Shown: positions 36,731-64,000 of the stretch, one piece after another
Numbering within the stretch: position 1 is the first letter of the stretch
Layout: every line of letters begins with the position of its first letter
NCBI GenBank assembly: GCA_028284765.1
Contig: JANQRA010000003.1
Coordinates: forward strand, 144,500-208,499
Source: Acidimicrobiia bacterium
Lineage (GTDB): Bacteria > Actinomycetota > Acidimicrobiia > Spongiisociales > ZC4RG35
Direction of reading: 5' to 3'
DNA: 64,000 nucleotides
The notes under the pieces: generated by a model
Seen by the model: the letters and a program-made list of their open reading frames with translations, nothing else
What the model was told of the DNA's origin: nothing
Databases searched by the model: none
Translations under genes and position numbers: made by a program

Positions 36731-38185
36731 ATGGGCGGTGGGGAATACAGGTTTCGGGTGACCCTCTGGGTCAGCGCCGGGGTAGCGGCGTTGACCGCTT
36801 TGCTGGTCGTCCCTTTTCCGTTTGGCGGAGACCAGGCTCTCTTTGCGGTGTTTGCCCGGATGATGGGGGACGGATCGCTCCTGTATGTGGAAATCTGGGA
36901 CGTCAAGCAGCCAGGAGTCTTTTGGTTCTTCGGGCTGGCAGGGGCCTGGAACGGATATTCCGAGATCGGGATTCACCTGGTTGAAGCTCTGCTTTGGATC
37001 GGCGGTTCGATCGGGCTCACATTCATGTCGAAACCTCGTCTGCGGCGAGAGTGGATCGCAGCCCTCTTTCCTGTGGCAGCTGCCGGGATCTTTTTCGCTA
37101 CCGCGGCCGTGGGCAACTTGACCCAGGTCGAGTCGCTGATGGCTCTTCCGCTGGCGTCGGTCGTCCTTCTTCTGGCGGATGAGGGCAACAGCCGTCGGAA
37201 GGCGTTTGCTGCCGGGTTGGTGACCGGTGTCATCGCGTTGTTCAAGTTCTTAACTGTCCTCGCTCCAATTGCAGTCCTCGCCGTCGCGGCGATCGTGAGA
37301 AGGGGCGAGGTGAGCTTCAGGGATCTGTTCAGCAGACTCCTAGCTCCCTTTGCGGTGGGATCACTCCTGCCACTGCTGGCCTTGGCAGTCTGGGTTGCCA
37401 TGTCCGGTGTCGTGGACGAGGTGTTATTCACTTGGTTTGAGTATCCGCCCCAGGTTCTCGGCATCGAACCCCGACCGCTCTCCCGCTTGCTGGACTCCTT
37501 CGTGTGGTTCGGGATCGCCTTCGGCTCAGTCGGCTTGCTGGCCCTCTTTCGCCTGATCGCGAGGCCCGCGTACCAGCGGCGTTTGACTTATCTGGCTTTT
37601 GCCGGAGTCGCCGGGGCGGTACTGGTTGCCCTCCTCCAGATCTGGTGGGCGTATCTCTTTCTCCTTGCGGTGGGGCCTCTGACGATCCTTGCCCTCCAAG
37701 GCCTGGACGACCTTTGGGAGCACCGGTGGCGCAAGGTCGGTCTTCCTGTCGTGGTACTCGCGTTGGTTCCGGCTTTGCTGCTCGCTGGAGAAAAGGCGAT
37801 CGATCTGGCAGGCCTGATAGGAGGGGAATCGCTCGAGGAATACAGGGAGTTCAGCGTGAGCTACCGGGGTGCCACGGAAGCAGTCGAGTTGGGCGGAATC
37901 GGTGAAGGCGACAACGTTTACGTCTTGGGTGATCCTCTTGTGCTTCAGATCTCTGGGGCCGATCAGTCGATCCCGGTCAATGGCTGGTCGCCGGAATTTT
38001 GGACGGCGGACGTTTGGCGGTGGGTCGGCGACGACCTCCAACGTCCAGGTACTGAGCTTTTGCTCATCGAGAACTGGGCGGCTCGGCTGGCCGAGGAGCG
38101 AGCACCGTGGTTGCTCGACGAGATCGACTTGCGATACGTCGAGCTGGCGTCGGATGATGGAGGAACCTGGTACGTCCCTCGCTGA
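36731..38185 (+). CDS. GT-C superfamily (ArnT/PMT-like) polytopic membrane glycosyltransferase
   Basis: 484 aa, about 11 transmembrane helices, acidic/aromatic first-loop motif GGDQALF...YVEIWDVKQPGVFWFFG. Confidence 0.5.
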   Translation: MGGGEYRFRVTLWVSAGVAALTALLVVPFPFGGDQALFAVFARMMGDGSLLYVEIWDVKQPGVFWFFGLAGAWNGYSEIGIHLVEALLWIGGSIGLTFMSKPRLRREWIAALFPVAAAGIFFATAAVGNLTQVESLMALPLASVVLLLADEGNSRRKAFAAGLVTGVIALFKFLTVLAPIAVLAVAAIVRRGEVSFRDLFSRLLAPFAVGSLLPLLALAVWVAMSGVVDEVLFTWFEYPPQVLGIEPRPLSRLLDSFVWFGIAFGSVGLLALFRLIARPAYQRRLTYLAFAGVAGAVLVALLQIWWAYLFLLAVGPLTILALQGLDDLWEHRWRKVGLPVVVLALVPALLLAGEKAIDLAGLIGGESLEEYREFSVSYRGATEAVELGGIGEGDNVYVLGDPLVLQISGADQSIPVNGWSPEFWTADVWRWVGDDLQRPGTELLLIENWAARLAEERAPWLLDEIDLRYVELASDDGGTWYVPR

Positions 38186-38187
38186 CG

Positions 38188-39030
38188 TCAAGACGGTTTC
38201 GTGGCAGTGGCCGAGATGAGGTCGTCGAATCGGTAGGGGATGGCCAGACGGTCGGCGCGAGTCGCCTGCATCGTCTTGATCAGTGCGTTGCCCAGCGAGT
38301 CGGGCAGTTTCGTGGCCACTACACCGGCGTATCCGCCGACCCCCACCTGTTTGGCCCACTTCTCGATCCGGACGTCTTGGAATCGGATGCGTTTCAGAGC
38401 GTCTTGGAGGCCACGTTCCGTAAAGAGGTGCAGAACACTTGGCGGAGAGAGCTGTTGCCATCTGGATCCAAAGCGGGTGGCCGTTTTGGACTCCAGGTCC
38501 CATGTCTCGATGAAGAGTCTGCCTCCTGGCTTCAGAATTCGAAAGGCCTCTTCCAGGTGCGTGCCGGGGTCCGGCATGTGCTCGAGAACCTGACCAAACA
38601 CGATCCCGTCGGCGAGTTCGCTGTCGATCGCAGCCAGATCAGGCACCACTACGTGGCCCTTCCGTTCAGCAAGGCCGGTGGCATGCGTCGAGATCTCAAC
38701 ACCAACGGCCTCCCACCCTCTGTGCCTGGCGCGGTCGAGCGTGTATCCGAAGGCTGATCCGACGTCGACCACTGACGGCGCATCGCGAGTGTTGATGTCA
38801 AGAGCGTCCAGCCGCCGATCCGAGGTCTTCAAGTGAATCTTTTCATCGGATGAATAGGCCTGATACCCACCCGCTTTGCGTCCGGCGAAATAGTCGGCCT
38901 CGTAGTAGTCATCGGGGGTTATCCCGGATAGAGATGCGGAGCCGCAACTGCTGCAGCGTGCGTAGGTGTAGTCGGCTACCCGTATGGGAGGGCCATTCAT
39001 GCCCCCGTCGCACAGTGTGCAGTTGCTCAT
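38188..39030 (-). CDS. Class I SAM-dependent methyltransferase with an N-terminal Cys4 zinc ribbon
   Basis: C-x2-C...C-x2-C at the N-terminus and a LKPGGRLFIETWD methyltransferase fold. Confidence 0.75.
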   Translation of the reverse strand: MSNCTLCDGGMNGPPIRVADYTYARCSSCGSASLSGITPDDYYEADYFAGRKAGGYQAYSSDEKIHLKTSDRRLDALDINTRDAPSVVDVGSAFGYTLDRARHRGWEAVGVEISTHATGLAERKGHVVVPDLAAIDSELADGIVFGQVLEHMPDPGTHLEEAFRILKPGGRLFIETWDLESKTATRFGSRWQQLSPPSVLHLFTERGLQDALKRIRFQDVRIEKWAKQVGVGGYAGVVATKLPDSLGNALIKTMQATRADRLAIPYRFDDLISATATKPS

Positions 39031-39090
39031 CCGGTCAAGATAGAAGGGACAGGGTCGACAACTGAACCCCTGTTCTTAGGCTGTGTCGAG

Positions 39091-40155
39091 ATGTCCGATG
39101 AACTCAAGCCCACCAGGGGGCGGGTGATGGTGGTCACGGCGAGCAATCGCCGACGTGGTGCTGAAGTCTTTGCCTCCCAACTCGGCCCGGGACTCAGTGA
39201 TTGCGGGTGGGAGGTAGACCTTGTCAGCCTGGAAGGCTCCGAAGACAGGGTTGCTATCGACTCAGAAGTGTTGGCAGACGACCTCAAGGGCAGATTCGAT
39301 CTGCGAACGGCCGGTGCGCTTCGGAAACGTGTTGCGGATCGTGCCCCCGATGTGATTCTCGCCATGGGTGGCTCGACCCTCAGATACTGCGTGTTCGCCA
39401 AAGGCGGAACACCGCTCGTCTATTTCGCTATCGGCGAGCCCCACTATTGGATCAGGTCGTCCAGGGCGCTGCGTATCAACAGGTTCCTCTTGCGACGCAC
39501 TGATTGGATCTTGGCGGTATCTCACATGACCGCCTCTCAACTCGAGGAGATGGAACCGAACGTGAAGGGGTCGGTTTCGGTGGCGTACACCGGTGTGTCG
39601 TTGACCGGCGGCGATCCGACGCCACCAAGCCAGGTCGGGCTGCGAGTGCTGATGGTGGGCAGCCTGTCTGATGAGAAGGATCCATTGTTGGGAATCGAGT
39701 CGGTCCTCGAAGTTGAAGGAGCCGTGCTGAGGCTGGTGGGTACAGGCCCGCTCGAGCCCGCAATCCGAGAGAAGGTCGCCGCCCTCGAGATCGGTGATCG
39801 TGTCGAACTGGTTGGTGCGGTCGAAGAAGTCGAAGAGCACTACCAATGGGCAGATGTCTTGCTTCTGACGTCTCGAACTGAAGGGCTGCCTGGGGTGATC
39901 ATCGAGGCAGCTGCACACGGGGTTCCGGCCGTCGGTGTCCAGGTCGGAGGTGTTGCCGAGGCGATTGCCGACGGCGGCATCGTCGTGGACCGGGAGCGTG
40001 CGTCCATCGCTCGGGCTCTGTACCAGCTCGAACAGGACCCCGCACTCGTCGCGCGTTTGGGTTCTAGTGCTAGGGAGCGGGTGCGACGAGAATTCAGCCT
40101 CGAGAAAGCGATCGACACGTTCGATCGTGCCCTGAGAGAGCAGAGTTCGTTGTGA
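39091..40155 (+). CDS. Glycosyltransferase family 4
   Basis: 354 aa, EGLPGVIIEAAAHGVPAV (E-x7-E region). Confidence 0.8.
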   Translation: MSDELKPTRGRVMVVTASNRRRGAEVFASQLGPGLSDCGWEVDLVSLEGSEDRVAIDSEVLADDLKGRFDLRTAGALRKRVADRAPDVILAMGGSTLRYCVFAKGGTPLVYFAIGEPHYWIRSSRALRINRFLLRRTDWILAVSHMTASQLEEMEPNVKGSVSVAYTGVSLTGGDPTPPSQVGLRVLMVGSLSDEKDPLLGIESVLEVEGAVLRLVGTGPLEPAIREKVAALEIGDRVELVGAVEEVEEHYQWADVLLLTSRTEGLPGVIIEAAAHGVPAVGVQVGGVAEAIADGGIVVDRERASIARALYQLEQDPALVARLGSSARERVRREFSLEKAIDTFDRALREQSSL

Positions 40156-41897
40156 AGATCGCCCATCTGACAACAGTGGACATGAGCCTTCGCTACCTCG
40201 TGCTGCCCCAACTGGAGGCGGCGGCGGAAGCTGGTGAGGCGATTGCCATCTCTGCTCCAGGCCCCTATGTCGCTGAGATCGAACAACGTGGCATCACTCA
40301 CTTCCCGCTCAGCCACTCGACGCGGGGGATGAACCCGCTATCCGATCTCGGAGCCGCTTATCAACTCTGGAAGATTCTGCGGCGAGAGGGCGTCGACATC
40401 CTCCACACCCACAACCCCAAACCAGGCGTATACGGACGCATAGTTGGTCGTCTGGCTGGGGTTCCGATCGTGGTGAACACTGTGCATGGTCTCTATGCGA
40501 CCGAAACCTCGTCACGCCTCAAACGTTGGATCGTGTACGGCCTCGAGTGGTTTGCGGCGAAGTTCTCAGATTCTGAACTGATCCAGAACCCCGAGGACCT
40601 CGACCTACTAGCCGGCAAAAGGATTGTCCCGAGATCAAAGCTTCGGCTCCTGGGCAACGGCGTCGATCTGACACGTTTCAGCCCGGAATCAGCCGACTCG
40701 CACCGAGATGAGACGAGACGAGAATTGGGTCTCGGCCCGGACGACATCGTGGTGGGGATGATCGGGAGATTGGTGGAGGAGAAGGGGGTGCCTGAGCTGT
40801 TGGACGCCTTTGCCAAGATGCCTGAGAACTATCGACTCGTCATTGCCGGGCCCGACGATCCCGAGAAGTCGGATGCCCTGCCGCGGGAGATGATCCGTGG
40901 CGCAGAGGAGAGGGGTGTCCAGTTTCTCGGCATGAGATCGGATGTTGAGCGCCTCTACGGAGCCTTCGACATGTTTGTCCTCCCGAGCCACCGTGAAGGC
41001 TTTCCTCGGGCTGCCATGGAAGCTGCGGCCAGCGGGCTACCACTTATCGCCACTAATATCCGCGGCTGCCGTCAGGTCGTGTCCGACGGTGTCAACGGGC
41101 GCTTGGTGCCGGTGTCTGACGCCGTGGCCTTAGAGGCCGCGATTTTGGAGCTGGGCAGCAGTGAATCCCTGCGTGCGACGATGGCCGCGAAGTCTCTTGA
41201 GATAGCCCGCTCCGACTTCGACGAGCGGGATGTGGTTCGGATCGTGATGGATACCTACGAGTCGGTGGCGAGTGACAAAGGGCTTCGATGGGCGCTTCCG
41301 GTCGGATCCAGTGATGTGTCGGTTCGCATTGCAGACGTCTCGGACGTGGCTGCGGTTGCCGAAATGCACACGAGGCTGATCAACACCGGGTTTCTAGCCA
41401 CCTTGGGGTCGGGATTCCTGAAGGTCCTATACGAAGAGCTGATCAACGACGAGGACTCGGTCGTTTATGTGGCGGTCGGTGGTGACGGACGGCTGGGTTT
41501 CATAGCCGGGACCAAGGACACCGGAGCCCTGTACAAGCGGTTCCTGCGAAGTCGGGCCTTCTCCGCCGGTCTCCGTGTGGTTCCGGCCCTTGGGAGGAGG
41601 GGAACAATCAAGCGGATTGTCGAGACGCTGCGATACGGCGATGAGGCGCCAAGGGCCAAGGCTGAGCTTCTGTCCATGGGAGTCACTCCCCAGTCACAGG
41701 GCAAAGGAGTCGGGTCGCTGCTGATCAACCAGCTTCTCCGATGGAGTGAATCTGAATCGGTCCCGACGATGAAGGTGGTAGTCGGTTCGGAAAACGACAG
41801 GGCCATCCGGCTCTACAACCGAAATGGCTTCGTCGACGGGCGAACCATTGAGGTTCACGAGGGAGATAGTTCGGAGGAGTTCATCTGGTCGGCCTAG
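40152..41897 (+). CDS. Fusion of a family 4 glycosyltransferase with a C-terminal GNAT N-acetyltransferase
   Basis: 581 aa. The first ~380 aa are GT4 (EGFPRAAMEAAASGLPLIATN). The last ~190 aa are GNAT (LLSMGVTPQSQGKGVGSLLINQLL). Confidence 0.7.
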   Translation: MKIAHLTTVDMSLRYLVLPQLEAAAEAGEAIAISAPGPYVAEIEQRGITHFPLSHSTRGMNPLSDLGAAYQLWKILRREGVDILHTHNPKPGVYGRIVGRLAGVPIVVNTVHGLYATETSSRLKRWIVYGLEWFAAKFSDSELIQNPEDLDLLAGKRIVPRSKLRLLGNGVDLTRFSPESADSHRDETRRELGLGPDDIVVGMIGRLVEEKGVPELLDAFAKMPENYRLVIAGPDDPEKSDALPREMIRGAEERGVQFLGMRSDVERLYGAFDMFVLPSHREGFPRAAMEAAASGLPLIATNIRGCRQVVSDGVNGRLVPVSDAVALEAAILELGSSESLRATMAAKSLEIARSDFDERDVVRIVMDTYESVASDKGLRWALPVGSSDVSVRIADVSDVAAVAEMHTRLINTGFLATLGSGFLKVLYEELINDEDSVVYVAVGGDGRLGFIAGTKDTGALYKRFLRSRAFSAGLRVVPALGRRGTIKRIVETLRYGDEAPRAKAELLSMGVTPQSQGKGVGSLLINQLLRWSESESVPTMKVVVGSENDRAIRLYNRNGFVDGRTIEVHEGDSSEEFIWSA

Positions 41898-41947
41898 CAA
41901 TTCTCCTGGCCGCCGGGCTCACGGCCCTGCTCGGCAGGGCCCTCATC

Positions 41948-42826
41948 GTGTTTGGCCTCAGGTCTGGATTCGTCGATGTTCCCGACGATGAGCTGAAGAC
42001 GCACAGTGGGAGACCTGTCCCCTTGGGAGGTGTCGCCGTCTATGTCGCCCTGCACTCGGGACTTGCGGTCATGGGAGAGTTCGACATCGGCTTGTTGGCC
42101 GGGTCAACAGTCGTGCTGATCTTGGGTCTCGCAGACGATCGTCTCTCCTTGTCGCCGATCATCAGGCTGGTGGTTGTATCGGGAGCCGCGCTAGCGACCG
42201 CCCTTCTCCGCCCGGACCCATCGCTGGCGGGAGCCATTGGCTTCACGGTGGCAGTGCTCATCGTCGTCAACGCCATAAACCTGTTCGACGGTCTCGATGG
42301 CTTGGTAGCGATATCCGCCACGTTGACCTCACTCGGCCTTGCTGCTGTGTTCTGGTCATGGCCTCCACTCGTGCTCGGCGCCGCTCTTCTTGGGTTCTAC
42401 CTTTGGAATCGGCCGCCAGCGAGGCTCTACCTGGGTGACAACGGTGCCTACCTGATCGGTCTCTCGCTGGTGTGGCTGGCATACGCAGGCGCGGAATCCG
42501 GATGGGAGATCCTTGTGGGCCTTGCGTTGGTAGGTGTCCCGTTGATCGACATGGCGGCGACGATTTTCCGGCGATACCGCTCCTCCGATCCACTGTTTGA
42601 AGGAGACCGCGATCACAGTTACGACCGATTGCACCAGTCGGGTCGATCGGTGGCCCAAGTCGGACTTTGGGTGGGGTTGATTCAGGCCGCCTGGGTGGTT
42701 GCAGTCTTGGGAATAGCCGCCGTATTTGCCCCTGCCGTGGCGGCTACTGGCTCTGCTGTGCTTGGTGTCGGGCTGGCAGTTCTGGTGGGTTTGCGGGGAG
42801 CTGGGTCAGAGGCGGCAGCTTCTTGA
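41948..42826 (+). CDS. WecA/TagO-like polyprenyl-phosphate HexNAc-1-phosphate transferase (initiating glycosyltransferase); the N-terminus is probably longer than called
   Basis: Conserved NAINLFDGLDGL and YLGDNGAYLIG motifs and multiple transmembrane helices. A transmembrane-like in-frame stretch AILLAAGLTALLGRALIVFG lies upstream of the first canonical start (GTG at 41948). Confidence 0.7.
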   Translation: MFGLRSGFVDVPDDELKTHSGRPVPLGGVAVYVALHSGLAVMGEFDIGLLAGSTVVLILGLADDRLSLSPIIRLVVVSGAALATALLRPDPSLAGAIGFTVAVLIVVNAINLFDGLDGLVAISATLTSLGLAAVFWSWPPLVLGAALLGFYLWNRPPARLYLGDNGAYLIGLSLVWLAYAGAESGWEILVGLALVGVPLIDMAATIFRRYRSSDPLFEGDRDHSYDRLHQSGRSVAQVGLWVGLIQAAWVVAVLGIAAVFAPAVAATGSAVLGVGLAVLVGLRGAGSEAAAS

Positions 42827-44147
42827 CCTCGTATCGGCTCGTCGAGCGTGCCTCCCAGCCAAGTCCGATGATCAGCACGAGGAAGAATGCAATCACCTGA
42901 CCACGCTGGCGGGCGATGATTCCAATGTTGCGGACGACGCTGAACGCCACGGCAAACCCGAGCAGGTAAAACGTCGAGAAGACGACGTAGGGTCGCGATC
43001 GCCAGTACTTCAGATTGCGCCAAACGGCCGGGAGCCGCCACAGAGTGAAACCTGCCAGCAAGGCTGTCTCTCCTGCTGCGAGCAGATGCTGAAGTTCGGT
43101 GGCCTCCCAGGGGAAAGGCCGGTAGAGCACGTGCGCCAACGCCATCGGGACGTCGAGTGGTGTGGTGACGACTCCTCCTGATCCGACCGAGCCTGAAGAT
43201 GTTCGCCGGACGACGTCGGCGGCGAATTCATCCACAGCCTGGCTGCTGAGAACATCGACCCCAAAGATGTCAGGGAAGACAGCCACCACGGCGGCAGAGG
43301 CGGCTAGCCCTCCTGCGAGGAGCATCAACCGTCGAAATGCCGCCCCCTGGTCGAGAGCTTTGGGCTTGGCAACCAGGGCCGTCAGCACCAGCGCACCGAC
43401 CACCAACGCGGCGATGTGGACCCGTACCAGACCGAGGGCAACCAGCGACACGCCCAGTCCTGTTAGCCAGCGGACTTCGAAGGCTTCGAGAGATCGACTG
43501 ATGAAGTAGGCCGATAGCCCAAGGGCCAGAACGACGAGAGCGTCTTTGCCGATCGACGACGGCCAGAAGGCGTAGGTCGGCAGGAGGAATATGAGGATTG
43601 CGTAGGGCTTGAGTTGATGGGGCTGTGCGTGTCGGCGGAATGCTGCGTAGAAGAGGATCTGACCGAGAAACGCCAGGATGGCGAAGAGCACGAAGCCGCC
43701 AAGAAGATCGGGTGTGATTATTGCGAAGAGACCCCCGGTGAAGGCTTCCACGACTTGGGTTCCGAAAGAACCTCTCCCGGTGAGCTCGGGGATGCTTCCG
43801 GACCGCCACTCTGAGGCAAGGTCGACACCAACGCGGTAGTACCGGAACGAGTCACCCGATCCGTACAGCACCGTGACCATGTAGTAGCGCCCAAGGACGC
43901 CTACCAACTTTGCTGCGAATCCGATTGCGATCCACTTCGGCAGCCATGCCTTGTCGTGCTCGCGTCGAATGGACCATCCGATGGCTGTCACCAGAAGCCC
44001 GCCCATTAGGGCAATGACTATCACCGCGGCGCCGGAGGCACCGACGCCGAGGAGAATCCCGAGCATGACCGTGGCGACTGCCGCAAGGGCGAGAATCGGG
44101 CCGTCAGATTTCACAGGAGCTCCAGGTCGGACATGGCGAAGTCCCAC
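42744..44147 (-). CDS. O-antigen polymerase/ligase-like (Wzy_C-type) polytopic membrane protein
   Basis: 467 aa, more than 10 transmembrane helices. No soluble catalytic motif. Sits in a Wzx/Wzy-type locus. Confidence 0.45.
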   Translation of the reverse strand: MGLRHVRPGAPVKSDGPILALAAVATVMLGILLGVGASGAAVIVIALMGGLLVTAIGWSIRREHDKAWLPKWIAIGFAAKLVGVLGRYYMVTVLYGSGDSFRYYRVGVDLASEWRSGSIPELTGRGSFGTQVVEAFTGGLFAIITPDLLGGFVLFAILAFLGQILFYAAFRRHAQPHQLKPYAILIFLLPTYAFWPSSIGKDALVVLALGLSAYFISRSLEAFEVRWLTGLGVSLVALGLVRVHIAALVVGALVLTALVAKPKALDQGAAFRRLMLLAGGLAASAAVVAVFPDIFGVDVLSSQAVDEFAADVVRRTSSGSVGSGGVVTTPLDVPMALAHVLYRPFPWEATELQHLLAAGETALLAGFTLWRLPAVWRNLKYWRSRPYVVFSTFYLLGFAVAFSVVRNIGIIARQRGQVIAFFLVLIIGLGWEARSTSRYEVKKLPPLTQLPANPPELPARHQAQQSQ

Positions 44148-47031: not shown

Positions 47032-47216
47032 TCGCTTGTCGCTAGTCGTGAATCGTATCTGGTGTTACAGACAACACAGTGGGCCTACGAGGGGATGAGG
47101 TGTCAATGGGTCGACCAGCCCATTCCCACTCTACGTGTCAAGAAACCACTTTCTGTGTCGGCCGAATGCTGATAGAGTCAGACCTGGTCCCGGTGGGTTA
47201 GCAATGGGAGGCGACC

Positions 47217-54389: not shown

Positions 54390-54476
54390 GTTGATGCAGT
54401 CGGCAGAGCGCTCATCGGTTGTCGCTGATCCAGATGGGGTACAGAGGCATTATCGGTCTATCTTGTTGTCCACCGA

Positions 54477-55964: not shown

Positions 55965-56862
55965 GCGGCGGCGGGAATCGATGAGCCGTAAGGCTTCCAC
56001 CATCGGATAGAACCTTGGGAAGGTGGTACTTGAGGCGTAGCGGCTGATGGTGCCTGCCGATTGCCCTTCGAAGGTTGATCATCATGCGGGTTGGCTTGCG
56101 ATACCAGAGCCGATAGAAGATGTCCCGGGCGTCGGCCCGTCTCCGAATGCGGACCTCGTCGGTGAAGGCTGCTGTGGTCGACACGCTCCCGGTATGAACA
56201 CAGGTGGCGTCGGGCACTGTCACCACTCGATACCCGAGGTGTTTGACCCGCTTGGCCAGGTCTATGTCCTCTCCGTATAGGAAGAACTGTGGGTTGAACC
56301 CACCAATCTCGCGAAGAAGGTCGGTGGGTCCCGCGACGCAGGCGCCGACCACCCACGCGACATCCACGAGTCCCTGTGATGTTGGGTAGCGAGCATTGTC
56401 ACGCCCCGGCCCTGAGAGGTTGGAGATCAGCCGCCACTCTTCTGCCAGCCCCGGGAAGTCCTCCCGCGCTGCAGGCATCGGTTGCCCAGATTCGTCAACG
56501 ATCCTGGGACCAATCAGACCTATCCGCATGTCAGTGTCGAGGGCGGCAAGGAGTTTGTCGACCATCTCGGATCCGAACTCAACGTCGTCATTGAGGATCA
56601 TCGTCACCCGACCTTCGGCGTCGGCGAGTGCCAGATTCGCAGCGTGGCCGTAGCCAGAGTTCTCAGGGTTGGCGATGACCTTGCCGTTCTGGATTGTTTG
56701 CCTGGCGATTTCGACCGATTTATCTGCTGAAGCGTTGTCCACCACGATCACCTCGTAGTCGAGGTGTTCCAGGGCGCGTTCATGGCTCTCGATGGCGTCC
56801 TTGATGCGGTCTTCGGAGTTGTAAGAGATGATCACAGCGGAGACGTCTAGTGAGTTAGGCAC
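55945..56862 (-). CDS. Glycosyltransferase family 2
   Basis: 305 aa. VSAVIISYNSEDRI..., DNASAD (DxD) and LNDDVEF motifs. Confidence 0.82.
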   Translation of the reverse strand: MPNSLDVSAVIISYNSEDRIKDAIESHERALEHLDYEVIVVDNASADKSVEIARQTIQNGKVIANPENSGYGHAANLALADAEGRVTMILNDDVEFGSEMVDKLLAALDTDMRIGLIGPRIVDESGQPMPAAREDFPGLAEEWRLISNLSGPGRDNARYPTSQGLVDVAWVVGACVAGPTDLLREIGGFNPQFFLYGEDIDLAKRVKHLGYRVVTVPDATCVHTGSVSTTAAFTDEVRIRRRADARDIFYRLWYRKPTRMMINLRRAIGRHHQPLRLKYHLPKVLSDGGSLTAHRFPPPLKPSSD

Positions 56863-58162
56863 TATTGAAAGCCCTCCTCATGGAGTCGAGGTCGGCTCCG
56901 GTCCCGGCCTCGAAGTGTTGAGTTTGATGGCTCAAGAGCGTCCAGAGGGCACTGTTTGGTACGTCAACGTCATTGAGAGTGATGGGTTCATCCTTCGCCA
57001 GTTTCCTCGTCACCGTGACACCCGGGGCCAGCCCGATTGGCAGCCACGTCGAGTCGGAAACCTTGTCGATCTCGCCATACACGTCGTACCCGCCGATGCC
57101 ATCGATCACGGTTCCGACATCCAGGTCTCGTTTGGCCAACGACACGACCTCTGCCACCGGAGCGCCGATTGGAGCGATCGTGGGCTCGTTGTCCAGGGCG
57201 GCCTCCGCGATCGAGATGGGCGTTTCGAACTGGACGAGGTGCCATGGTCGGAAGAAGAGGTACCAAGGTCCATCGCCCATCTTCAGGTATTGGAGATAGG
57301 GGGCCGCCAACTCCTCATGCGCACCGGTCGCGATCACGAAGACTCCACTTCCGAAGTCACCGCCGAGGGTGTAGTCGACCACGCCTGTACCGGACAGGGC
57401 TGATCTGAAATCTGTCAAGGCATCGGCCATGGTGGTTTCCACGCCGTGCATGCCTCTCACTTCTGGGAGGAGGCCCGTTGCATTGGCAACAGACACGTTC
57501 TCGACGTTCATCTTCGTGCCGTCGGTAAAGGCAGTCGTCATGTGCAAGCTTGTCTTCTGCTTCTCGGCCCAGGGGCGGATGGAGTCAGGTGTGGCGTGTC
57601 TGTCGAGGAAACCCTTGCAATTGATCGCGGCAACGGTTTCCAGGCCGATTCCCTCTACGTACTCGACCAGCCTCTGCATGACACCTGGCTGATCGCCGTC
57701 ACTGCCTGTGTACACCACTCCCGATTGATCAGCGAGCACCTTGAGGATCGGTCCGACTGTGGCGTCTGTCTCGTAGTTGAGAGAGACAACATGGCATCCA
57801 GCAGCGAAAGCCTCCAGCGCTACCTTGGCCCCGAAGCTGGTGTCTCCCGTCGCCTCCACGACCACGTCGATAGAGCTCAACTCGCTGAGAATCGATGGCT
57901 CGCTGACGAGGGCGGTTTTCCCTTCGCGGACCATGTCATCCAACTGTTGGCTGCCGACTTCCTCGTCCACCGCCTCTATCCCGTTGGTCTGAAGCATCAT
58001 GTTCGCCCGCTCCGCAGACCGTGCGATCACCAGGGATGGTGTCATTCCAGGGGTCAGTTTCAACTGGTGGATGAGACCTCGAGCGACGAACCCCGAACCC
58101 ACGACAGCCACCCTGATGTGACGCCCGGACTGTTCGGCTTCTTGGAGTCTTCTGAAGATCAT
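56855..58162 (-). CDS. NAD-binding (homoserine-dehydrogenase-like Rossmann) oxidoreductase with a C-terminal SAF domain (COG4091-like)
   Basis: Internal ATG at 58162 preceded by GGAGG. N-terminal VAVVGSGFVARG. C-terminal SAF-like VVSLAKRDLDVGTVIDGIGGYDVYGEI...DEPITLNDV. The 97-aa upstream extension in the ORF track has no coding character. Confidence 0.55.
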   Translation of the reverse strand: MIFRRLQEAEQSGRHIRVAVVGSGFVARGLIHQLKLTPGMTPSLVIARSAERANMMLQTNGIEAVDEEVGSQQLDDMVREGKTALVSEPSILSELSSIDVVVEATGDTSFGAKVALEAFAAGCHVVSLNYETDATVGPILKVLADQSGVVYTGSDGDQPGVMQRLVEYVEGIGLETVAAINCKGFLDRHATPDSIRPWAEKQKTSLHMTTAFTDGTKMNVENVSVANATGLLPEVRGMHGVETTMADALTDFRSALSGTGVVDYTLGGDFGSGVFVIATGAHEELAAPYLQYLKMGDGPWYLFFRPWHLVQFETPISIAEAALDNEPTIAPIGAPVAEVVSLAKRDLDVGTVIDGIGGYDVYGEIDKVSDSTWLPIGLAPGVTVTRKLAKDEPITLNDVDVPNSALWTLLSHQTQHFEAGTGADLDSMRRAFNSA

Positions 58163-58185
58163 CGGGTGTAGCCTCCACGAACGTT

Positions 58186-59262
58186 TTGAAAGCCGTAATT
58201 CTCGCCGGGGGTCAGGGCACACGACTCCGCCCGCTGACCTATTCCGTTCCGAAGCAGTTGGTTCCGATTGCCGGGCGTCCTGTGCTGGCCCATATCGTTG
58301 CCAACCTCGAAGAGTGTGGAGTCGAGGACATCGCGATCGTGACCAGTCCCGAGGCCGAGGCTGCCGTTCGGCAGATGATCTCGGACGAGGGTCTTGAGCG
58401 GCTGGGCATCGAGGTCTTGATACAGAACTCGCCTGACGGCCTTGCGGCTGCATACGAAGTGGCGCTCGATTGGGTTGCGGACGAGCCGTGTGTGCTCTAC
58501 CTGGGCGACTGTCTCCTCACAGGCGGCATAGGTCATGTGATTTCCGAACATGTCGCTGGCGATTTCGACGCAACGATACTCGTGGCCGAAGTCGACGATC
58601 CCAGCAGATACGGCATCGTCGAGGTGGCGGATTCCGGGCTGATCGAGCGACTCGTCGAGAAGCCCACGGAGCCCAAGAGCAACTTGGCGATTGTGGGCGT
58701 GTATGTGTTCGGTTCGGGGACCTCCGATATCGTCCGAGCGGTCGAGCCCGGCTTCCGCGGCGAGCGGGAGATCACGGATGCGCTTCAGGCCATTGTCGAC
58801 GGTGGCGGTCGGGTCGCTGAGAGCAGATTGGCCGGCTGGTGGATCGACACGGGAACCCCGCCGGACGTGCTCAACGCCCAGGCTCTGCTGCTCGAAGGTC
58901 TGGAGACATCTCAGGACGGCACGCTCGAAGGCAGCGATGTGACGGGCTCGGTGTTCGTTGCGGAAGGCGCATCGGTCGAAGGCGCAGTGCTCGTGGGACC
59001 CGTGGTCCTTGCGGAAGGCGCCGTTGTCAGAGGCGGGACGGTCGGCCCCAACGTCTCCGTTGGACGTGGCTGTGTTGTCGAATCGTCGACCATCCACAAC
59101 TCGATCGTCATGAGCGGCAGCATCGTGTCGACCTCCCATCTCTCGGATTCGATCGTTGGCCCTGATAGCGAGATAAGAGGGGTTCAGGGTCAGCCGGACG
59201 TTCGGCTGATCGTTGGGGCCGAGTCGGCGATTGTCTCAGGGGAATCCAGCCACTCGGGGTGA
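58186..59262 (+). CDS. Sugar-1-phosphate nucleotidyltransferase (RmlA-like long form with a C-terminal left-handed beta-helix)
   Basis: MKAVILAGGQGTRLRPLTYSVPKQLVPIAGRPVL, then C-terminal hexapeptide repeats. Confidence 0.8.
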   Translation: MKAVILAGGQGTRLRPLTYSVPKQLVPIAGRPVLAHIVANLEECGVEDIAIVTSPEAEAAVRQMISDEGLERLGIEVLIQNSPDGLAAAYEVALDWVADEPCVLYLGDCLLTGGIGHVISEHVAGDFDATILVAEVDDPSRYGIVEVADSGLIERLVEKPTEPKSNLAIVGVYVFGSGTSDIVRAVEPGFRGEREITDALQAIVDGGGRVAESRLAGWWIDTGTPPDVLNAQALLLEGLETSQDGTLEGSDVTGSVFVAEGASVEGAVLVGPVVLAEGAVVRGGTVGPNVSVGRGCVVESSTIHNSIVMSGSIVSTSHLSDSIVGPDSEIRGVQGQPDVRLIVGAESAIVSGESSHSG

Positions 59263-60203
59263 CGGCGCGCCCATTCGACCGTGTGTGCTACCCCGTCCTC
59301 CAACGATGTGGTGGCTCTCCACTCGAGTAAGTCGGCGGCCTTGGAAACTGCGGGCACACGTCGGTCGATGTCCTCGTACTTCTCGCCGAATTCTTCTGAG
59401 GTAGAGAAATCGTCCCACCCAATGTCCGATTCACAGGCATCTAGAACCGCTTTGGTGACATCGAGGATCGTCGATTCTCTTGAACTCCCCAGGTTGAACG
59501 TCTCTCCGATGGCTGACTCCTGAGTTCCGGCTCGGACGGTCCCCTCTACGACGTCTGTCACAAACGTGAAGCAACGAGTCTGTTGCCCACCGTCATAGAC
59601 GAGTGGCCGTTTTCCGTTCAGAACCCGGTGAACTGCCCGGGAGACTGCATAGTTAGGGACCTGTCTCGGTCCGTATGCGTTGAAGAATCTGACGACACTC
59701 ACCGGAATAGCAGCCTGCCGATAAACCGCCCACGCGAGATGCTCTCCAGCGGCCTTCGATGTGGAGTAGCTCCATCGATCAACTGAGGGAGGTCCGAGGA
59801 CTCTGTCGTCTTCCTCACCCCATGGCACGACCGGATTTCGACCGAAGACCTCGGACGTTGAGCTGAATAGGAATCTGGCTCCGGTGTCCCGGCTGGCGAG
59901 GAGGGCGTTTCTGGTACCGATGACGTTGACGTCGACGACATCGAAGGGATTGCTCATGTAGTTGGAGACGCCCACGACGGCAGCGAGGTGAAACACGACG
60001 TTGGCTCCTCGAATCGCCTCTTTCATGAAGTCGACATCTCGCACATCCCCGGCCATGAATCCGTACCCCGGCATCGAGGAGGCCTTCTTCAGCCATTGGG
60101 TCTCGACGCGGTCCAACGCCCGGACGTCAACACCATCTTCGAGCAACCTCTCGGTGAGGTGGCTTCCAACGAAGCCACCAGCACCGGTGACCACGGCCTT
60201 CAA
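59190..60203 (-). CDS. NAD-dependent nucleotide-sugar epimerase/dehydratase (UDP-glucuronate decarboxylase or 4-epimerase-like)
   Basis: 337 aa. MKAVVTGAGGFVGSHL and YSTSKAAGE. Adjacent to a Ugd-family gene. Confidence 0.75.
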   Translation of the reverse strand: MKAVVTGAGGFVGSHLTERLLEDGVDVRALDRVETQWLKKASSMPGYGFMAGDVRDVDFMKEAIRGANVVFHLAAVVGVSNYMSNPFDVVDVNVIGTRNALLASRDTGARFLFSSTSEVFGRNPVVPWGEEDDRVLGPPSVDRWSYSTSKAAGEHLAWAVYRQAAIPVSVVRFFNAYGPRQVPNYAVSRAVHRVLNGKRPLVYDGGQQTRCFTFVTDVVEGTVRAGTQESAIGETFNLGSSRESTILDVTKAVLDACESDIGWDDFSTSEEFGEKYEDIDRRVPAVSKAADLLEWRATTSLEDGVAHTVEWARRHPEWLDSPETIADSAPTISRTSG

Positions 60204-61531
60204 CGACCGATCCCCCGGTATCTCAGGCCCAGCTGTTCCATCTCCTCGATCTGGGCGCGGGAGAAGTACATCCGCCCATCAACGATCAAGCATCCGGGAG
60301 CCGTGAGTTCCGCCAGCTCGGCGATTTCGAGCCTCTTGAAGTCGTCATGACCTGTCAGGAATGCCACGCAGTCGGCATCCTCGATGGCCTCGGCGAGATT
60401 GTCGCATGGCTCGACGGATGTCACGTAGCTGAACTCGCTTGGGTCGACCCACGGGTCGAACACACTGAGATGTGCCCCCGAGCCTTCGAGAAGTGCAATC
60501 AAGTCGCGAGTCGGGGTGAGCCTGACGTCTCCGGTGTTGTTCTTGAACGCGACACCCAACACTGAGACCTTCGCGGTTTCGATCGGCTTGTCGGCCTTGG
60601 CCAGGCCATCGGAGATGAGGCTGTAGGTGTAGCCAGGCATTTCGTCATTGATGGCTCTGCCGGCTGACGGGAGCCGTAAAGACAGTCCGTGCTCTTCAGC
60701 CATGTGATGCACGAACCACGGGTCTTTGGTCAGGCAGGAGCCACCCACTCCCATCGACGGTGTGAGGATGTTGACGTGGTGGCGGCCTTTGGGCAGGCTG
60801 TTGGCAGCTTCAATCACCTCCAACACGTCGACGTTGAGCTTGTCGCTGAGCTGAGCGAGTTCGTTGCCCATCGCGATACTGAGATCAATCCACCAGTTGT
60901 CCGCGAGTTTCGAGAGCTCAGCCGTTCGGGCGTCGGACACCCGTACGGTCGGAAGACCAAGCGCCTCTTCCCAAAAATCACCGGCTCGTGTGGTGCTTTC
61001 TTGGTCGACGCCACCGACGACAACCGGAAGGACCTGAAGCTCGTGAAGCGCACGGCCTTCTGCGAGACGCTCCGGGCAGAAGGCGAGAAAGAAGTCCTTG
61101 CCTGCCTGGAGTCCTGACTCCTCGAGAATCGGCTGAGCGATCCCCTCAGTCGTCCCTGGTGGAACGGTGCTTTTGAGCACCACGAGCTGACCGGGTTGGA
61201 GGTTCTGCGCGACTTGACGGCAAGCCTGGCTCACCTGGGTGGTGTCAGGCTCCCCGGCATCGTCCATCGGCGTGCCGACAGTCACGATCACAACGTCGGC
61301 TTCCTTCACCGGATCGAACGAGGACGTAGCCGTGAGGTGTCCGTCGGCCACTGCCTGCGCAACCAGATCACCCAGTCCGGGCTCGTTGATTGCAGCCGTT
61401 CCTGAGTTGATCGAGCTGACCACCTTCTCAGATGGATCGATCCCCGTGACCTGGTACTTCTTCGATGCCAGGACTGCCCCCACGCAGCTCCCTACATACC
61501 CGAATCCAACAACTGCTACCTGCGCACTCAA
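60200..61531 (-). CDS. UDP-glucose/GDP-mannose dehydrogenase family protein (Ugd-like)
   Basis: VAVVGFGYVGSCVGAVLA is the N-terminal Rossmann fold and CLTKDPWF is the catalytic Cys region. The start is placed at TTG 61531 with a GGGGTGA ribosome-binding site. The ORF-track start at 61633 adds an atypical 34-aa leader. Confidence 0.8.
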   Translation of the reverse strand: MSAQVAVVGFGYVGSCVGAVLASKKYQVTGIDPSEKVVSSINSGTAAINEPGLGDLVAQAVADGHLTATSSFDPVKEADVVIVTVGTPMDDAGEPDTTQVSQACRQVAQNLQPGQLVVLKSTVPPGTTEGIAQPILEESGLQAGKDFFLAFCPERLAEGRALHELQVLPVVVGGVDQESTTRAGDFWEEALGLPTVRVSDARTAELSKLADNWWIDLSIAMGNELAQLSDKLNVDVLEVIEAANSLPKGRHHVNILTPSMGVGGSCLTKDPWFVHHMAEEHGLSLRLPSAGRAINDEMPGYTYSLISDGLAKADKPIETAKVSVLGVAFKNNTGDVRLTPTRDLIALLEGSGAHLSVFDPWVDPSEFSYVTSVEPCDNLAEAIEDADCVAFLTGHDDFKRLEIAELAELTAPGCLIVDGRMYFSRAQIEEMEQLGLRYRGIGR

Positions 61532-61638: not shown

Positions 61639-63195
61639 GTGATCATCACCGCTGCATCGGTTCCTGCGGGGGAGACCATCGACGCAGATGTCTGCATCAT
61701 CGGTGCCGGTCCTGCCGGGTTGTCTCTCGCCCGCAAACTGGATGGCACGCGCCATCGCGTCTACATCATCGAGACCGGCGGTGAGCACCCGGATGACTTC
61801 TCAGCTCGTATGTCCGAAGGAGATTCAGTGGGTCATCACTACTTCGACATCAAGACGTCTCGCGAGCGGGTGCTTGGCGGCAGTTCTTACATCTGGGAGG
61901 AGTGGATGCGTGCCCGTCCGCTTGATCCGATCGACTTCGAGCGGCGCTCATGGGTCGAACACTCTGGGTGGCCATTTGGCCGAGAAGAGTTGCAGCCGTT
62001 CTACAAAGAAGCTCAGGACCTCCTAGGTCTCGGTCCGTTCGACTACGAGGTCGAAGGTGCCTACGAAGGGGATGTGCGACAAGTCAGGTTTCGCTATTCG
62101 GCGACCGCTGACTTCACCACCAGTCGATCGTGGTTGGAGAAATCGTCGAACATCTGTGTGGTCCTGGGCGGAACTGCGCTACAGCTTGTCCCAAGCGACG
62201 ATCAACCAGAACGGGTTGAGTCAGTTGAGGTGGGGGCTGTCGGCGGTCACGTGTTTTCGGTTGGATCCGACGTTGTTGTGCTTGCGGGCGGAGGCATCGA
62301 GGTGCCGCGCCTGCTTCTCCTGTCGAGGAAACGGATGGCCTCGGGCTTCGGCAATCACCATGACCTGGTCGGCAGGTATTTCATGGAACACCCCAGGGTC
62401 TCTAGAGGTCGCGTCGATTGGACCGGAGGGAAATCGGCCGAGACGTTCGCGATCGTGAGGCATGCCGATCATGCAACCCGCCTGGCCTTCGCTGCGACGC
62501 CTGAGCTCATGGAACGAGAAGGCCTTCTCAACGGGATGATCCTTCTCACCCCGGCGTCCGAACGTGAGGTTTCGGAGTCGGTGCGTTCGCTGGCGATGGT
62601 CCGGGATCGCATCTTCCGTGGCAAGGAGAGTGGGGAGCGAACGCCGGGGCATGTGCGATCACTCGTCAGGAATCTGATGAAGACATGGCAGGAAACCCAT
62701 GTCGATAGTGAAACCAAAGCGGGCTTGTTACGTGTCTCCGCAACGGTGGAACAAGAGCCCAACCCTCAGTCGAGAATCACGCTGGGTGAGCAGTTGGATC
62801 CTCTCGGTCAGCCGCTCCCCGAACTCGACTGGCAGCTGGGAGCAAAAGAGAAGCGGACAATCAGAGAGATGCAGGTGGCCCTGAGTGCGTGGCTGCAAAA
62901 CCAGGGCGCAGGCGAGTTCTCAGGCTTGCTGGGTGATGAGGAGCCCGACCGTGCCCTTCGCGGTGAATGGCATCAGCTGGGAACGGCTCGTATGTCCACA
63001 TCGGAGAGGAGCGGAGTTGTCGATCCGGATCTCAGGGTCCATGGGTCGGCCAACGTTTACGTTGCCGGGGGAGCGGTGTTTCCGACGGTCGGATACGCCA
63101 ATCCGACTCTGACGATCGTTGCTTTGTCACTGCGGCTGGCCAGCCATCTCGAACCACGGTTGGCATCGCGGCCTTCCCTTGGCGCCTTTTGGTGA
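61639..63195 (+). CDS. GMC-family FAD-dependent oxidoreductase
   Basis: 518 aa. N-terminal DADVCIIGAGPAGLSLA. C-terminal GTARM...DPDLRVHGSANVYVAGGAVFPT. Confidence 0.8.
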   Translation: MIITAASVPAGETIDADVCIIGAGPAGLSLARKLDGTRHRVYIIETGGEHPDDFSARMSEGDSVGHHYFDIKTSRERVLGGSSYIWEEWMRARPLDPIDFERRSWVEHSGWPFGREELQPFYKEAQDLLGLGPFDYEVEGAYEGDVRQVRFRYSATADFTTSRSWLEKSSNICVVLGGTALQLVPSDDQPERVESVEVGAVGGHVFSVGSDVVVLAGGGIEVPRLLLLSRKRMASGFGNHHDLVGRYFMEHPRVSRGRVDWTGGKSAETFAIVRHADHATRLAFAATPELMEREGLLNGMILLTPASEREVSESVRSLAMVRDRIFRGKESGERTPGHVRSLVRNLMKTWQETHVDSETKAGLLRVSATVEQEPNPQSRITLGEQLDPLGQPLPELDWQLGAKEKRTIREMQVALSAWLQNQGAGEFSGLLGDEEPDRALRGEWHQLGTARMSTSERSGVVDPDLRVHGSANVYVAGGAVFPTVGYANPTLTIVALSLRLASHLEPRLASRPSLGAFW

Positions 63196-63196
63196 G

Positions 63197-64000
63197 TTAG
63201 CGATTCGACAGCCGGCGCTTCAGGCGACGCAGCCCGCCGTTCAAGATCCTTCTGTCGAGAGCTGCCAGACGGTCCCCAACTGAGAGAGTGCGGGCCTCGT
63301 CGGACAGGACCTCGTCGAAGACGATCCCAGCCAATTCATCCTCACCCACCTGTTGGAGCCCCTCGTGGATCTGGGGGTAGACCGATGGAATGGATGGGCT
63401 GCGAGCGAGGGAGTTGCGCACGAGCGAGGGGTCGAGTGACGGGTTGACGAAGATCGGCATCGCTTCGAGTCGGTCCAGGGCCCGCAAGGTGAGTTTGGTG
63501 CGGATGCATTTCTCGCACTCGCCACAATTGAATTCCCCCTCTGCCAAACGGTTCGCAACAAAACAGATCTTGATTCTCTCGTGAGCCGGCTCCCAGTCGG
63601 CAAGCCGTGAGGTCTTCTCGTAGCGCGAGACACCATCCATTTGGTGCTTGACCTCCACGGCGCCGCTCGAATAGTTGGGATCTAGAAATGGGTGTGAGCC
63701 CTCGTGAACGGTCTCCGGATTTGATTCCACGCCCGAGGCGATCGACAGGGTCTTGACGCCTTTGCCCAAGGCATGCCCGGTGCTGGCGATGAGTGCCCCG
63801 TATAGCTCGTGGCCGAAGAAGTGGTTGGCAGGCTCAAGTTCTCTCACGTTGGTGGCGATCGGAACCAACTCGAGGTCGGTGTCACGCGCGAGATTCTCGA
63901 GTTGGCCCCAGTACGGGTCGCCTGGGCCGAACTCAAACGGATCGAAGCCTTTGGAGATGACAACGCCCAAGTCGAACCATGCCGCATCGTCTTCGCTGGA
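63197..64000 (-). CDS. Hypothetical protein, C-terminal part only (gene continues beyond the window); has a C-x2-C-x2-C cluster
   Basis: Open minus-strand frame to the window end. C-terminal CFVANRLAEGEFNCGECEKCIRTK. Confidence 0.4.
   Translation of the reverse strand, partial: SSEDDAAWFDLGVVISKGFDPFEFGPGDPYWGQLENLARDTDLELVPIATNVRELEPANHFFGHELYGALIASTGHALGKGVKTLSIASGVESNPETVHEGSHPFLDPNYSSGAVEVKHQMDGVSRYEKTSRLADWEPAHERIKICFVANRLAEGEFNCGECEKCIRTKLTLRALDRLEAMPIFVNPSLDPSLVRNSLARSPSIPSVYPQIHEGLQQVGEDELAGIVFDEVLSDEARTLSVGDRLAALDRRILNGGLRRLKRRLSNR

Follow-up and report, generated by a model that had tools for sequence, protein, structure and literature searches.

A conserved glmS-linked gene cluster of Acidimicrobiia points to a cell-surface heteropolysaccharide and carries a Wzc-like co-polymerase without Walker A

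The Acidimicrobiia are an abundant actinobacterial class of soil, sediment and marine habitats whose envelope is almost uncharacterised. A stretch of 64,000 nucleotides from a member of this class (assembly GCA_028284765.1, contig JANQRA010000003.1, positions 144,500 to 208,499; hereafter the window, to which all coordinates refer unless stated otherwise) contains a large surface-glycan locus at 36731-64000 and, 9 kb upstream of it, the gene of a large secreted protein with S-layer homology (SLH) repeats. A sequence-only reading of this DNA had proposed that the locus either builds the cell-wall polymer to which the SLH domains bind or glycosylates the surface protein. This raises the question what the locus makes and whether its product has anything to do with the SLH protein. 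Our analysis indicates that the region is probably an assembly line for a polyprenyl-phosphate-linked cell-surface heteropolysaccharide of the Wzx/Wzy/Wzc type, in which a conserved core of genes is combined with a strain-variable arm.

Mapping of the open reading frames (ORFs) and scans with Pfam and NCBIfam revealed about 21 contiguous glycan-related genes on alternating strands between 36731 and the end of the window, a 27-kb run that is far beyond chance expectation. The gene inventory given by the sequence-only reading was confirmed almost item by item, and its general picture of a large surface-glycan locus was borne out. The locus depends on a polyprenyl-phosphate carrier and encodes, besides the initiating transferase, the Wzx flippase and one polysaccharide co-polymerase (PCP). 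Comparison with about 100 related loci divides the region into a collinear core (39.1-52.6 kb) and a variable arm (52.6 kb onward). The genes of the core are:

39091-40155, + strand: GT4 glycosyltransferase a (GT4a), with Glycos_transf_1 and Glyco_transf_4 domains
40152-41897, + strand: GT4b, GT4 domains fused to a C-terminal GNAT domain (Acetyltransf_1 at residues 493-560)
41948-42826, + strand: WecA/MraY-family polyprenyl-phosphate N-acetylhexosamine (HexNAc)-1-phosphate transferase, the initiating enzyme (PF00953, E 8e-21)
42744-44147, - strand: polytopic membrane protein of 467 aa (TM467), a candidate for the Wzy-type polymerase or else for a GT-C transferase (PMT_2, E 6e-3)
44111-45061, - strand: GNAT N-acetyltransferase of 316 aa (Acetyltransf_9, E 6e-15)
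45054-46154, - strand: GT4 glycosyltransferase c (GT4c), with GT4 domains
46135-47031, - strand: SDR epimerase/reductase, divergently paired with CapD (Epimerase, E 2e-48)
47217-49121, + strand: CapD/PglF/WbpM-type membrane-anchored UDP-HexNAc 4,6-dehydratase (Polysacc_synt_2, PF02719, E 1e-101)
49122-51791, + strand: Wzc-like polysaccharide co-polymerase of 889 aa, with a degenerate bacterial tyrosine kinase (BY-kinase) domain and a C-terminal domain of unknown type
51796-52587, + strand: polysaccharide deacetylase (Polysacc_deac_1, E 3.5e-25)

The related loci were collected in two scans. A scan of genomes with an alignment of 27 members of the Wzc-like family (alignment A1) yielded 23 loci, the synteny of which was assessed by tblastn, and a scan of metagenomes with an alignment of GT4b yielded 80 further loci (691 kb); single loci are referred to by L numbers below. 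Over 36301-48185, the sequence of the window recurs without a difference on a Logan metagenome contig, and the 889-aa Wzc-like protein has a 100% identical match on an NCBI contig. A collinear block was present in about 15 of the 23 species-level genomes of Acidimicrobiia, with protein identities of 38-68% and the order GT4a, GT4b, WecA or a sugar N-formyltransferase, TM467, GNAT, GT4c, SDR, CapD, Wzc-like protein and deacetylase, and the collinear core was also found on many metagenomic contigs. The best conserved gene is that of the SDR, with homologues of 60-69% identity and with MoeE5 and GalE-type 4-epimerases as best matches in the PDB. The identities of homologues are 44-66% for GT4b and 46-62% for GT4c, and those of collinear homologues 43-54% for the stand-alone GNAT and 28-49% for GT4a. 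Practically every PCP-centred relative of sufficient length has the deacetylase gene directly 3' of the Wzc-like gene (48-57% identity), whereas the two are about 1 kb or more apart in some GT4b-centred loci. The WecA-like transferase, which with 292 aa is short and scores 73.5 bits (E 1.6e-20) with the WecA model TIGR02380, under the equivalog cut-off, holds the same position in L019, L022, L024, L029, L037 and others. The CapD-type dehydratase carries four N-terminal transmembrane (TM) segments and matches the PseB and FnlA models with 189 and 173 bits, respectively.

The relatives fall into two types. In loci of the window type, the GT4b::GNAT fusion is followed by WecA, whereas in type-B loci GT4b is without GNAT and is followed by a sugar N-formyltransferase gene, with a DegT aminotransferase gene further downstream (window 40152-41897 compared with L009 1078-3186). 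This difference suggests N-acetyl and N-formyl variants of one polymer. Beyond the shared block, the type-B clusters encode a small membrane protein, a fourth GT4 and the DegT aminotransferase before they end at the housekeeping genes nnr/yjeF, alr, tsaE and tsaB. As a separate observation, GT4a is fused to an N-terminal NTP_transf_5 domain, an uncharacterised nucleotidyltransferase, in two loci (L029 7582-10357 and L083 7741-10507), where the fusion gene is preceded by that of a divergent LuxR/GerE-family regulator, a candidate regulator of the cluster.

The chromosomal site of the core was examined through the genes ahead of it:

33281-34627, + strand: glmM, phosphoglucosamine mutase (PGM_PMM domains I-IV), a conserved upstream neighbour
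34643-34811, + strand: glmS ribozyme (RF00234, 98.2 bits against a gathering score of 37)
34861-36687, + strand: glmS, glutamine-fructose-6-phosphate amidotransferase (SIS domains and GATase)

The locus thus starts directly after glmM and a ribozyme-controlled glmS, as had been read from the sequence; the RF00234 match spans the full length of the model and lies 50 nt upstream of glmS. Further upstream lie ribosomal protein operons, truA, rplM and rpsI, an order that, with glmM and glmS, is the actinobacterial arrangement. The same site is used in relatives: in L029, L059, L060 and L083, glmM, a confirmed glmS ribozyme and glmS are followed by 0.4-3.7 kb of variable DNA and then by the core, and in L037, the contig of which begins inside glmS, the core comes after glmS with its gene order unchanged. 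The upstream glmM homologues of the four former loci are 68-77% identical to that of the window, and the glmS homologues upstream of the cluster in relatives 77-86%.

This fixed setting bears on the possibility that the region is nothing more than a common capsule or exopolysaccharide island, variable between strains and without a particular role in the wall. A Wzc-like protein of the PCP-2a type, a deacetylase and a Wzx flippase are typical of capsule and exopolysaccharide loci, and the right-hand half does differ between genomes; the left core, however, keeps its order at one chromosomal site across genomes that have diverged to the identities given above, unlike serotype cassettes, and the GC content is flat (0.59-0.62 across the region), so that there is no sign of recent import. 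We therefore consider such an island unlikely. A core that is fixed in order and site, joined to a variable arm, argues for a constitutive envelope polymer, which the product probably is. The earlier idea of a cell-wall polymer gains indirect support from the collinearity of the core downstream of glmM, ribozyme and glmS in many Acidimicrobiia, as this fits a housekeeping polymer and not a serotype cassette. The conserved cluster at a fixed site beside a ribozyme-controlled glmS is, as such, a concrete candidate for the source of the main surface polymer of these bacteria.

The most unusual element of the locus is the 889-aa protein encoded between capD and the deacetylase gene. The sequence-only reading had called it Wzz-like; it is Wzc-like, as judged from both fold and sequence profile. 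It contains TM segments at residues 9-36 and 280-308 and matches the EpsG/eps_fam models at E 1e-11. An AlphaFold (AF2) model built from family alignment A1 reached a pLDDT of 79.6, and the top PDB match of this model in Foldseek was full-length E. coli Wzc (7NHR, E 2.3e-18, about 700 aligned columns). Its cytoplasmic domain resembles the kinase domains of CapAB (TM-score 0.81), Wzc and Etk, and the sequence profile of the family likewise matches Wzc (E 4.5e-17). The protein is thus a Wzc-type polysaccharide co-polymerase. Its family comprises 33 members, the full-length ones of 868-916 aa, and the 30 full-scoring named members all come from metagenome genomes of Acidimicrobiia.

As in E. coli Wzc (7NHR, 3LA6), a helical extracytoplasmic domain is flanked by two TM segments, after which comes a cytoplasmic domain of P-loop fold. 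Unlike in Wzc, the Walker A signature GK[ST] (G-x4-GK[ST]) is present in none of the 27 aligned members, and in the profile alignment the variable family string 'evssedvq' falls opposite the Walker A 'SPSAG(K)TF' of Wzc; the family has kept a DxD motif and a Walker-B-like hydrophobic strand with Asp at its end. The C-terminal tyrosine cluster is absent as well, and the kinase-fold domain is followed by a disordered low-complexity linker with a single Tyr and by a domain of about 250 aa (residues ~639-888), which is conserved and confidently modelled and gave no match to Pfam or, by sequence, to the PDB. Since Walker A is lost across the family, the protein is predicted to be unable to autophosphorylate, and the additional C-terminal domain presumably controls it. 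A Wzc homologue without Walker A offers a natural test of whether co-polymerase function requires autophosphorylation. Apart from this family, the locus follows the well-known logic of polysaccharide assembly and leaves the current understanding of it unchanged. Two copies of the Wzc-like gene, each with capD and the deacetylase gene, were seen in one metagenome-assembled genome (MFD02242.bin.2.214) near the ends of separate contigs (L007 and L021); this pair could be a duplication or an artefact of assembly or haplotypes.

Outside the core, the variable arm contributes the flippase and a set of nucleotide-sugar and modifying enzymes:

52572-54389, - strand: AsnB-like amide synthetase (Asn_synthase, PF00733, E 2e-28)
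54477-55964, + strand: Wzx flippase of the MOP family (Polysacc_synt_3, PF13440, E 7e-68)
55945-56862, - strand: GT2 glycosyltransferase (Glycos_transf_2, E 5e-23)
56855-58162, - strand: NAD(P) oxidoreductase with DRL_cat (E 4e-43) and SAF domains
58186-59262, + strand: long-form glucose-1-phosphate thymidylyltransferase, RmlA-long (TIGR01208, 334.8 bits against a cut-off of 320.25)
59190-60203, - strand: UXS/ArnA-type SDR, probable NDP-glucuronate decarboxylase (PDB 8VR2, 167 bits)
60200-61531, - strand: NDP-sugar 6-dehydrogenase, CalS8-like (PDB 4XR9, CalS8, E 7.5e-131, 440 bits)

From the AsnB-like gene onward no counterparts were found in the relatives, except for a pair of SAF oxidoreductase and RmlA genes in L024. 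The flippase matches TuaB-like and MOP-flippase models of NCBIfam (203 bits with the MOP flippase model, cut-off 273); a homologue of it was found in none of the 23 genome relatives, at distances of up to 10 kb from the Wzc-like gene, and the 80 GT4b-centred loci gave one weak match (L081, 27% identity). The dehydrogenase had been read as Ugd. A sugar 6-dehydrogenase it is, and a plain UDP-glucose dehydrogenase was rejected, as the protein is far closer to the TDP-glucose dehydrogenase CalS8 (440 bits) than to UDP-glucose dehydrogenases (165 bits); its probable start, judged from start codon and ribosome-binding site, is TTG 61531. The neighbouring UXS-like SDR also matches human UXS1 (150 bits), ArnA (106-110 bits) and the NCBIfam models of ArnA and UDP-xylose synthase. 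The adjacency of RmlA-long, the CalS8-like dehydrogenase and the UXS-like SDR suggests a branch from dTDP-glucose via dTDP-glucuronate to a pentose. The TDP-pentose route of calicheamicin likewise has a thymidylyltransferase, the CalS8 type of dehydrogenase and a UXS-type decarboxylase side by side, although in the window they stand in a polysaccharide locus and not in a natural-product cluster.

Three enzymes had been singled out earlier as atypical of glycan loci, the GMC oxidoreductase (listed further below) among them. The DRL/SAF oxidoreductase, which matches Brucella DRL (3UPL/3UPY) at E 1e-64, recurs beside RmlA in L024, and the label of atypical is not supported for it; a scan of genome contigs with this protein alone gave no match. 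Its longest ORF (56855-58453) would add about 97 Arg/Pro-rich residues and run some 270 nt into the divergent RmlA gene, so that the start is probably ATG 58162, and that at 58453 probably belongs to an over-extended ORF of the kind typical of high-GC DNA. In the case of the AsnB-like protein, the missing nucleophile was confirmed, as the first ~100 residues contain no Cys and none of the alternative starts brings one in. The idea that such an enzyme is foreign to glycan loci was rejected on the precedent of WbpS (P. aeruginosa O6) and WbqG (E. coli O121), AsnB-like uronamide-forming enzymes (PMC7468200) of the eps_aminotran_1 group (TIGR03108), which is also the best family match of the window protein (E 1e-29). 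The Cys-less enzyme would probably amidate a uronic acid. The P. aeruginosa O6 (WbpM, WbpL, WbpS) and E. coli O121 (WbqG) clusters share with the window a CapD/WbpM-type dehydratase, a WecA-family initiator, an NDP-sugar dehydrogenase and an AsnB-like enzyme of this group. In contrast to WbpS and WbqG, the window protein lacks the glutaminase Cys and reaches 103.7 bits against a cut-off of 816.9, and in contrast to both clusters, the dehydrogenase is of the TDP-glucose type.

Taken in biosynthetic order, these gene identities suggest the following route. UDP-GlcNAc, fed by the adjacent glmM and glmS, would be converted by the CapD/PglF dehydratase to a 4-keto-6-deoxy-HexNAc, from which the divergent SDR and the GNATs would form a 6-deoxy N-acyl-hexosamine; in the relatives, a DegT aminotransferase and a sugar N-formyltransferase may take the place of the SDR/GNAT step. 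The WecA-type enzyme would begin the repeat unit on the lipid carrier, the three GT4 enzymes would extend it at the cytoplasmic face, and the deacetylase may edit an N-acetyl group. The variable arm would supply Wzx and the GT2 enzyme and would convert dTDP-glucose via dTDP-glucuronate to a pentose (or 4-keto-pentose) through RmlA-long, the CalS8-like dehydrogenase and the UXS-like SDR, with the DRL/SAF oxidoreductase and the Cys-less AsnB-like enzyme as presumptive additions. After flipping, TM467 would polymerise the repeat units, with the 889-aa Wzc-like protein as co-polymerase. We infer that the product is probably a polymer of N-acylated 6-deoxy-hexosamine that also contains uronic or uronamide sugars and, possibly, a pentose.

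Among the closest known systems are the S. aureus cap5/cap8 capsule loci. In these, a membrane-anchored CapD-type 4,6-dehydratase also stands beside an SDR of about 300 aa (the CapN reductase). Further shared components are GT4 enzymes and acetyltransferases, an NDP-sugar dehydrogenase, a flippase and, for the PCP, a domain of BY-kinase fold. The window differs in its initiating enzyme, which is of the WecA and not of the Bac_transf family, and in its PCP, in which membrane part and kinase-fold domain are fused as in Wzc, with Walker A lost, instead of being separate as in CapA/CapB. It also differs in the absence of a recognisable Wzy, and there is no close sequence relationship between the two loci.

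The polymerase was sought among the two polytopic membrane proteins, TM467 of the core and a second one at the left end of the locus:

36731-38185, + strand: polytopic membrane protein of 484 aa (TM484) with about 10 TM segments, a possible GT-C-type transferase, window-specific

The labels Wzy/ligase-like for TM467 and GT-C for TM484 are unproven, as the matches behind them are sub-threshold ones to PMT_2. This family is the sole Pfam match of TM484 (E 1.2e-3), which gave no match to NCBIfam or, by sequence, to the PDB; no homologue of it was found in the related loci, and none was obtained in a single-protein scan of metagenome contigs. No Wzy_C or any other Wzy-type Pfam family matched TM467 or TM484 at E <= 1. 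In the TM467 family, PMT_2 was weakly matched by 7 of 13 and by 5 of 43 members, some homologues passed its cut-off, such as P0154 with 29.3 bits, and no member examined matched a Wzy family. A search at E <= 1e-3 gave 17,941 representatives of this large family, the profile of which showed no relationship to TM484. A homologue search with a chimeric query of TM467 and TM484 returned 4 matches, hydrophobic words having saturated the candidate list, and an AF2 model of TM467 from 5 sequences was too poor for fold comparison (pLDDT 42).

In almost every related locus of sufficient length, the GNAT gene has a TM467-family gene as its neighbour on one and the same side, and even in the distant loci L032, L034 and L054 a diverged member stands next to the GNAT gene. 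In one protein of the representative library (P0305, 965 aa), a ParA/BY-kinase-like P-loop domain is fused to a TM467-family domain, which could be weak evidence for a functional link between TM467 and the PCP, or a gene-calling artefact. By exclusion, and from its conserved position, its topology and this one fusion protein, we infer that TM467 is the best candidate for the polymerase.

The same two proteins are central to the idea of a pgl-like O- or N-glycosylation system, in which TM467 or TM484 would pass the glycan from its lipid carrier to surface proteins, the SLH beta-helix protein for example. PglF-like (CapD) and PglD-like (GNAT) enzymes are indeed encoded in the locus and a PglE-like one (DegT) in relatives, some GT4 enzymes give weak PglH and PglJ matches, an ABC exporter of one relative is PglK-like, the cluster now and then includes an SLH gene, and both polytopic proteins show the GT-C-like similarity to PMT_2. 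The C. jejuni pgl pathway shares this logic of an N-acylated 6-deoxy-amino sugar and the extension by GT4 enzymes on a lipid carrier. The PMT_2 matches are mostly sub-threshold, however, and the locus contains no oligosaccharyltransferase domain of the STT3/PglB or the Wzy_C type (PglL/WsaB), so that the pairing with a Wzy_C-type oligosaccharyltransferase assumed earlier falls away and a protein-glycosylation reading has no specific support. In addition, initiation is of the WecA and not of the PglC type, and a Wzc-type co-polymerase, which pgl does not have, is conserved in the core and points to polymerisation and export of a polysaccharide. We regard protein glycosylation as highly improbable.

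The remaining part of the question concerns the SLH protein itself, which is encoded as follows:

24233-27598, + strand: secreted beta-helix protein of 1121 aa with three C-terminal SLH-like repeats (Chlam_PMP repeats, E 1e-23)

The protein has a signal-like N-terminus, and its gene is inserted in a housekeeping ribosomal-protein region between rplQ (23802-24152) and the truA/rplM/rpsI block, ending 9.1 kb upstream of the locus. That it is SLH-anchored had been stated without reservation. Its C-terminus alone matches SLH at E 1.3e-3 with 19.1 bits, below the Pfam cut-off of 20.8. The assignment is right at the family level, by way of homologues: the three repeats of about 60 aa (27020-27598; F.D...F..DI..LA..GIT.GC..P.N..FCP..V.R...A.F) have at least 1,240 homologues, nearly all of which carry PF00395, and the named ones are SLH-domain proteins of Acidimicrobiia. 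A Cys pair (GCNPP...FCP) is conserved in each repeat, and the place of the canonical TRAE of SLH is taken by the variant [ST]R[EGD] with the Arg conserved. A PDB search with the repeat sequences gave no match. As this variant falls just under the Pfam cut-off in this protein, surveys at gathering cut-offs may undercount SLH in Acidimicrobiia. The module is fused to varied passengers (cupredoxin, PKD, Excalibur, fn3 and others), and since it occurs on more than 1,240 different proteins, it is a generic anchor of the lineage and not a special partner of the locus.

We next consider whether the core cluster makes a secondary cell-wall polymer to which SLH proteins, including this neighbour, are docked. 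The commonness of triple SLH modules in the lineage (at least 1,240 protein clusters) and the behaviour of the core as a housekeeping polymer locus beside glmS would both fit such a polymer, as would the conserved Arg of the TRAE-like motif. A hidden Markov model (HMM) built from 120 homologues identified the beta-helix protein as the sole SLH-like ORF of the window. With this approach, the surroundings of the cluster in the 23 related genomes (within 10 kb, about 400 kb in total) yielded no SLH gene, while the GT4b-centred metagenomic loci contained SLH genes in 4 of 80 cases (L044, L075, L087 and L100), which speak in favour of a link as genuine SLH genes within or beside homologous clusters. 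The SLH proteins of L044, L075 and L087 pass the Pfam threshold, and relatives score 38-54 bits; the gene lies between GT4b and WecA in L044 and directly after GT4b in L075 and L100. In L087 (2067-8039), it stands between an ATP-grasp/HAD pair and a pair of DltD-like and MBOAT genes. The latter pair resembles the PatB/PatA pair for O-acetylation of wall polysaccharide in Bacillus, and its adjacency to an SLH gene is a further point for SLH docking.

These occurrences have to be set against the background. A rough estimate, from at least 1,240 SLH protein clusters compared with 33 clusters of the Wzc-like family, gives tens of SLH genes per genome, which predicts at least as many near the cluster by chance; four SLH genes in 691 kb are no more than this rough background. 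In the window itself, seven housekeeping genes intervene between the SLH gene and the locus, and the 9-kb distance, which had been taken as meaningful, was rejected as such; SLH genes are not enriched near the cluster.

The biosynthetic genes also tell against docking. The characterised pathway to an SLH ligand needs TagO, TagA, CsaB and MnaA (PMC6030368), and of this set, the locus has only the TagO/WecA-type enzyme: CsaB (PF04230) gave no match in the genes of 36731-64000 or in the scanned upstream genes, TagA/WecG and MnaA (Epimerase_2) none in the locus, and all three were also absent from the scanned ORFs of related loci. The SLH-CsaB systems of B. anthracis and P. alvei (PMC6030368) thus share with the window organism the TagO/WecA-type initiator and the triple SLH modules, whereas the window locus is much larger, is without CsaB, TagA and MnaA and has a Wzc-like co-polymerase, and the repeats of its neighbour are a divergent form of SLH in which each repeat has a Cys pair. 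As a rule, SLH is accompanied by CsaB, and cultured Acidimicrobiia were scored as having neither (bioRxiv 10.1101/2021.05.31.446380, with table). As there is no pyruvyltransferase, an SLH ligand made by this locus would need a non-canonical anionic epitope such as a uronic acid. Docking of SLH proteins on the product is therefore decidedly unlikely in our view, and the SLH-ligand reading, like that of protein glycosylation, has no specific support. As a long shot, still, the glmS-linked core might, in a large and uncultured branch of Acidimicrobiia, make the main glycopolymer of the wall; this polymer would then serve as a CsaB-independent ligand of the Cys-paired SLH modules, and its synthesis would be governed by a Wzc-type co-polymerase in which a new C-terminal regulatory domain replaces autophosphorylation.

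Several points weigh against the interpretation that we favour, an assembly line for a constitutive surface heteropolysaccharide of the Wzx/Wzy/Wzc type. A match to a recognised Wzy or Wzy_C family is missing among the proteins of the locus. Wzx lies outside the conserved core, and one relative has an MsbA/PglK-like ABC exporter. The DegT aminotransferase of the relatives is absent from the window, so that the sugar chemistry, with some uncertainty, differs from theirs. No LCP ligase was seen in the locus, which leaves attachment to the wall unsupported, and the locus may extend past position 64000.

The ends of the locus are formed by genes of less certain relevance:

38188-39030, - strand: SAM-dependent methyltransferase (Methyltransf_23, E 5e-20), window-specific
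61639-63195, + strand: GMC-family FAD oxidoreductase (GMC_oxred_C, E 7e-24), locus membership uncertain
63200-64000, - strand: partial ORF running off the window (weak DUF6395 match, E 5e-3)

Neither the methyltransferase nor the GMC oxidoreductase has a counterpart in the related loci compared. Upstream of glmM, at 29679-31025 on the - strand, the window further encodes an alpha/beta-hydrolase domain fused to the catalytic domain of an adenylate/guanylate cyclase.

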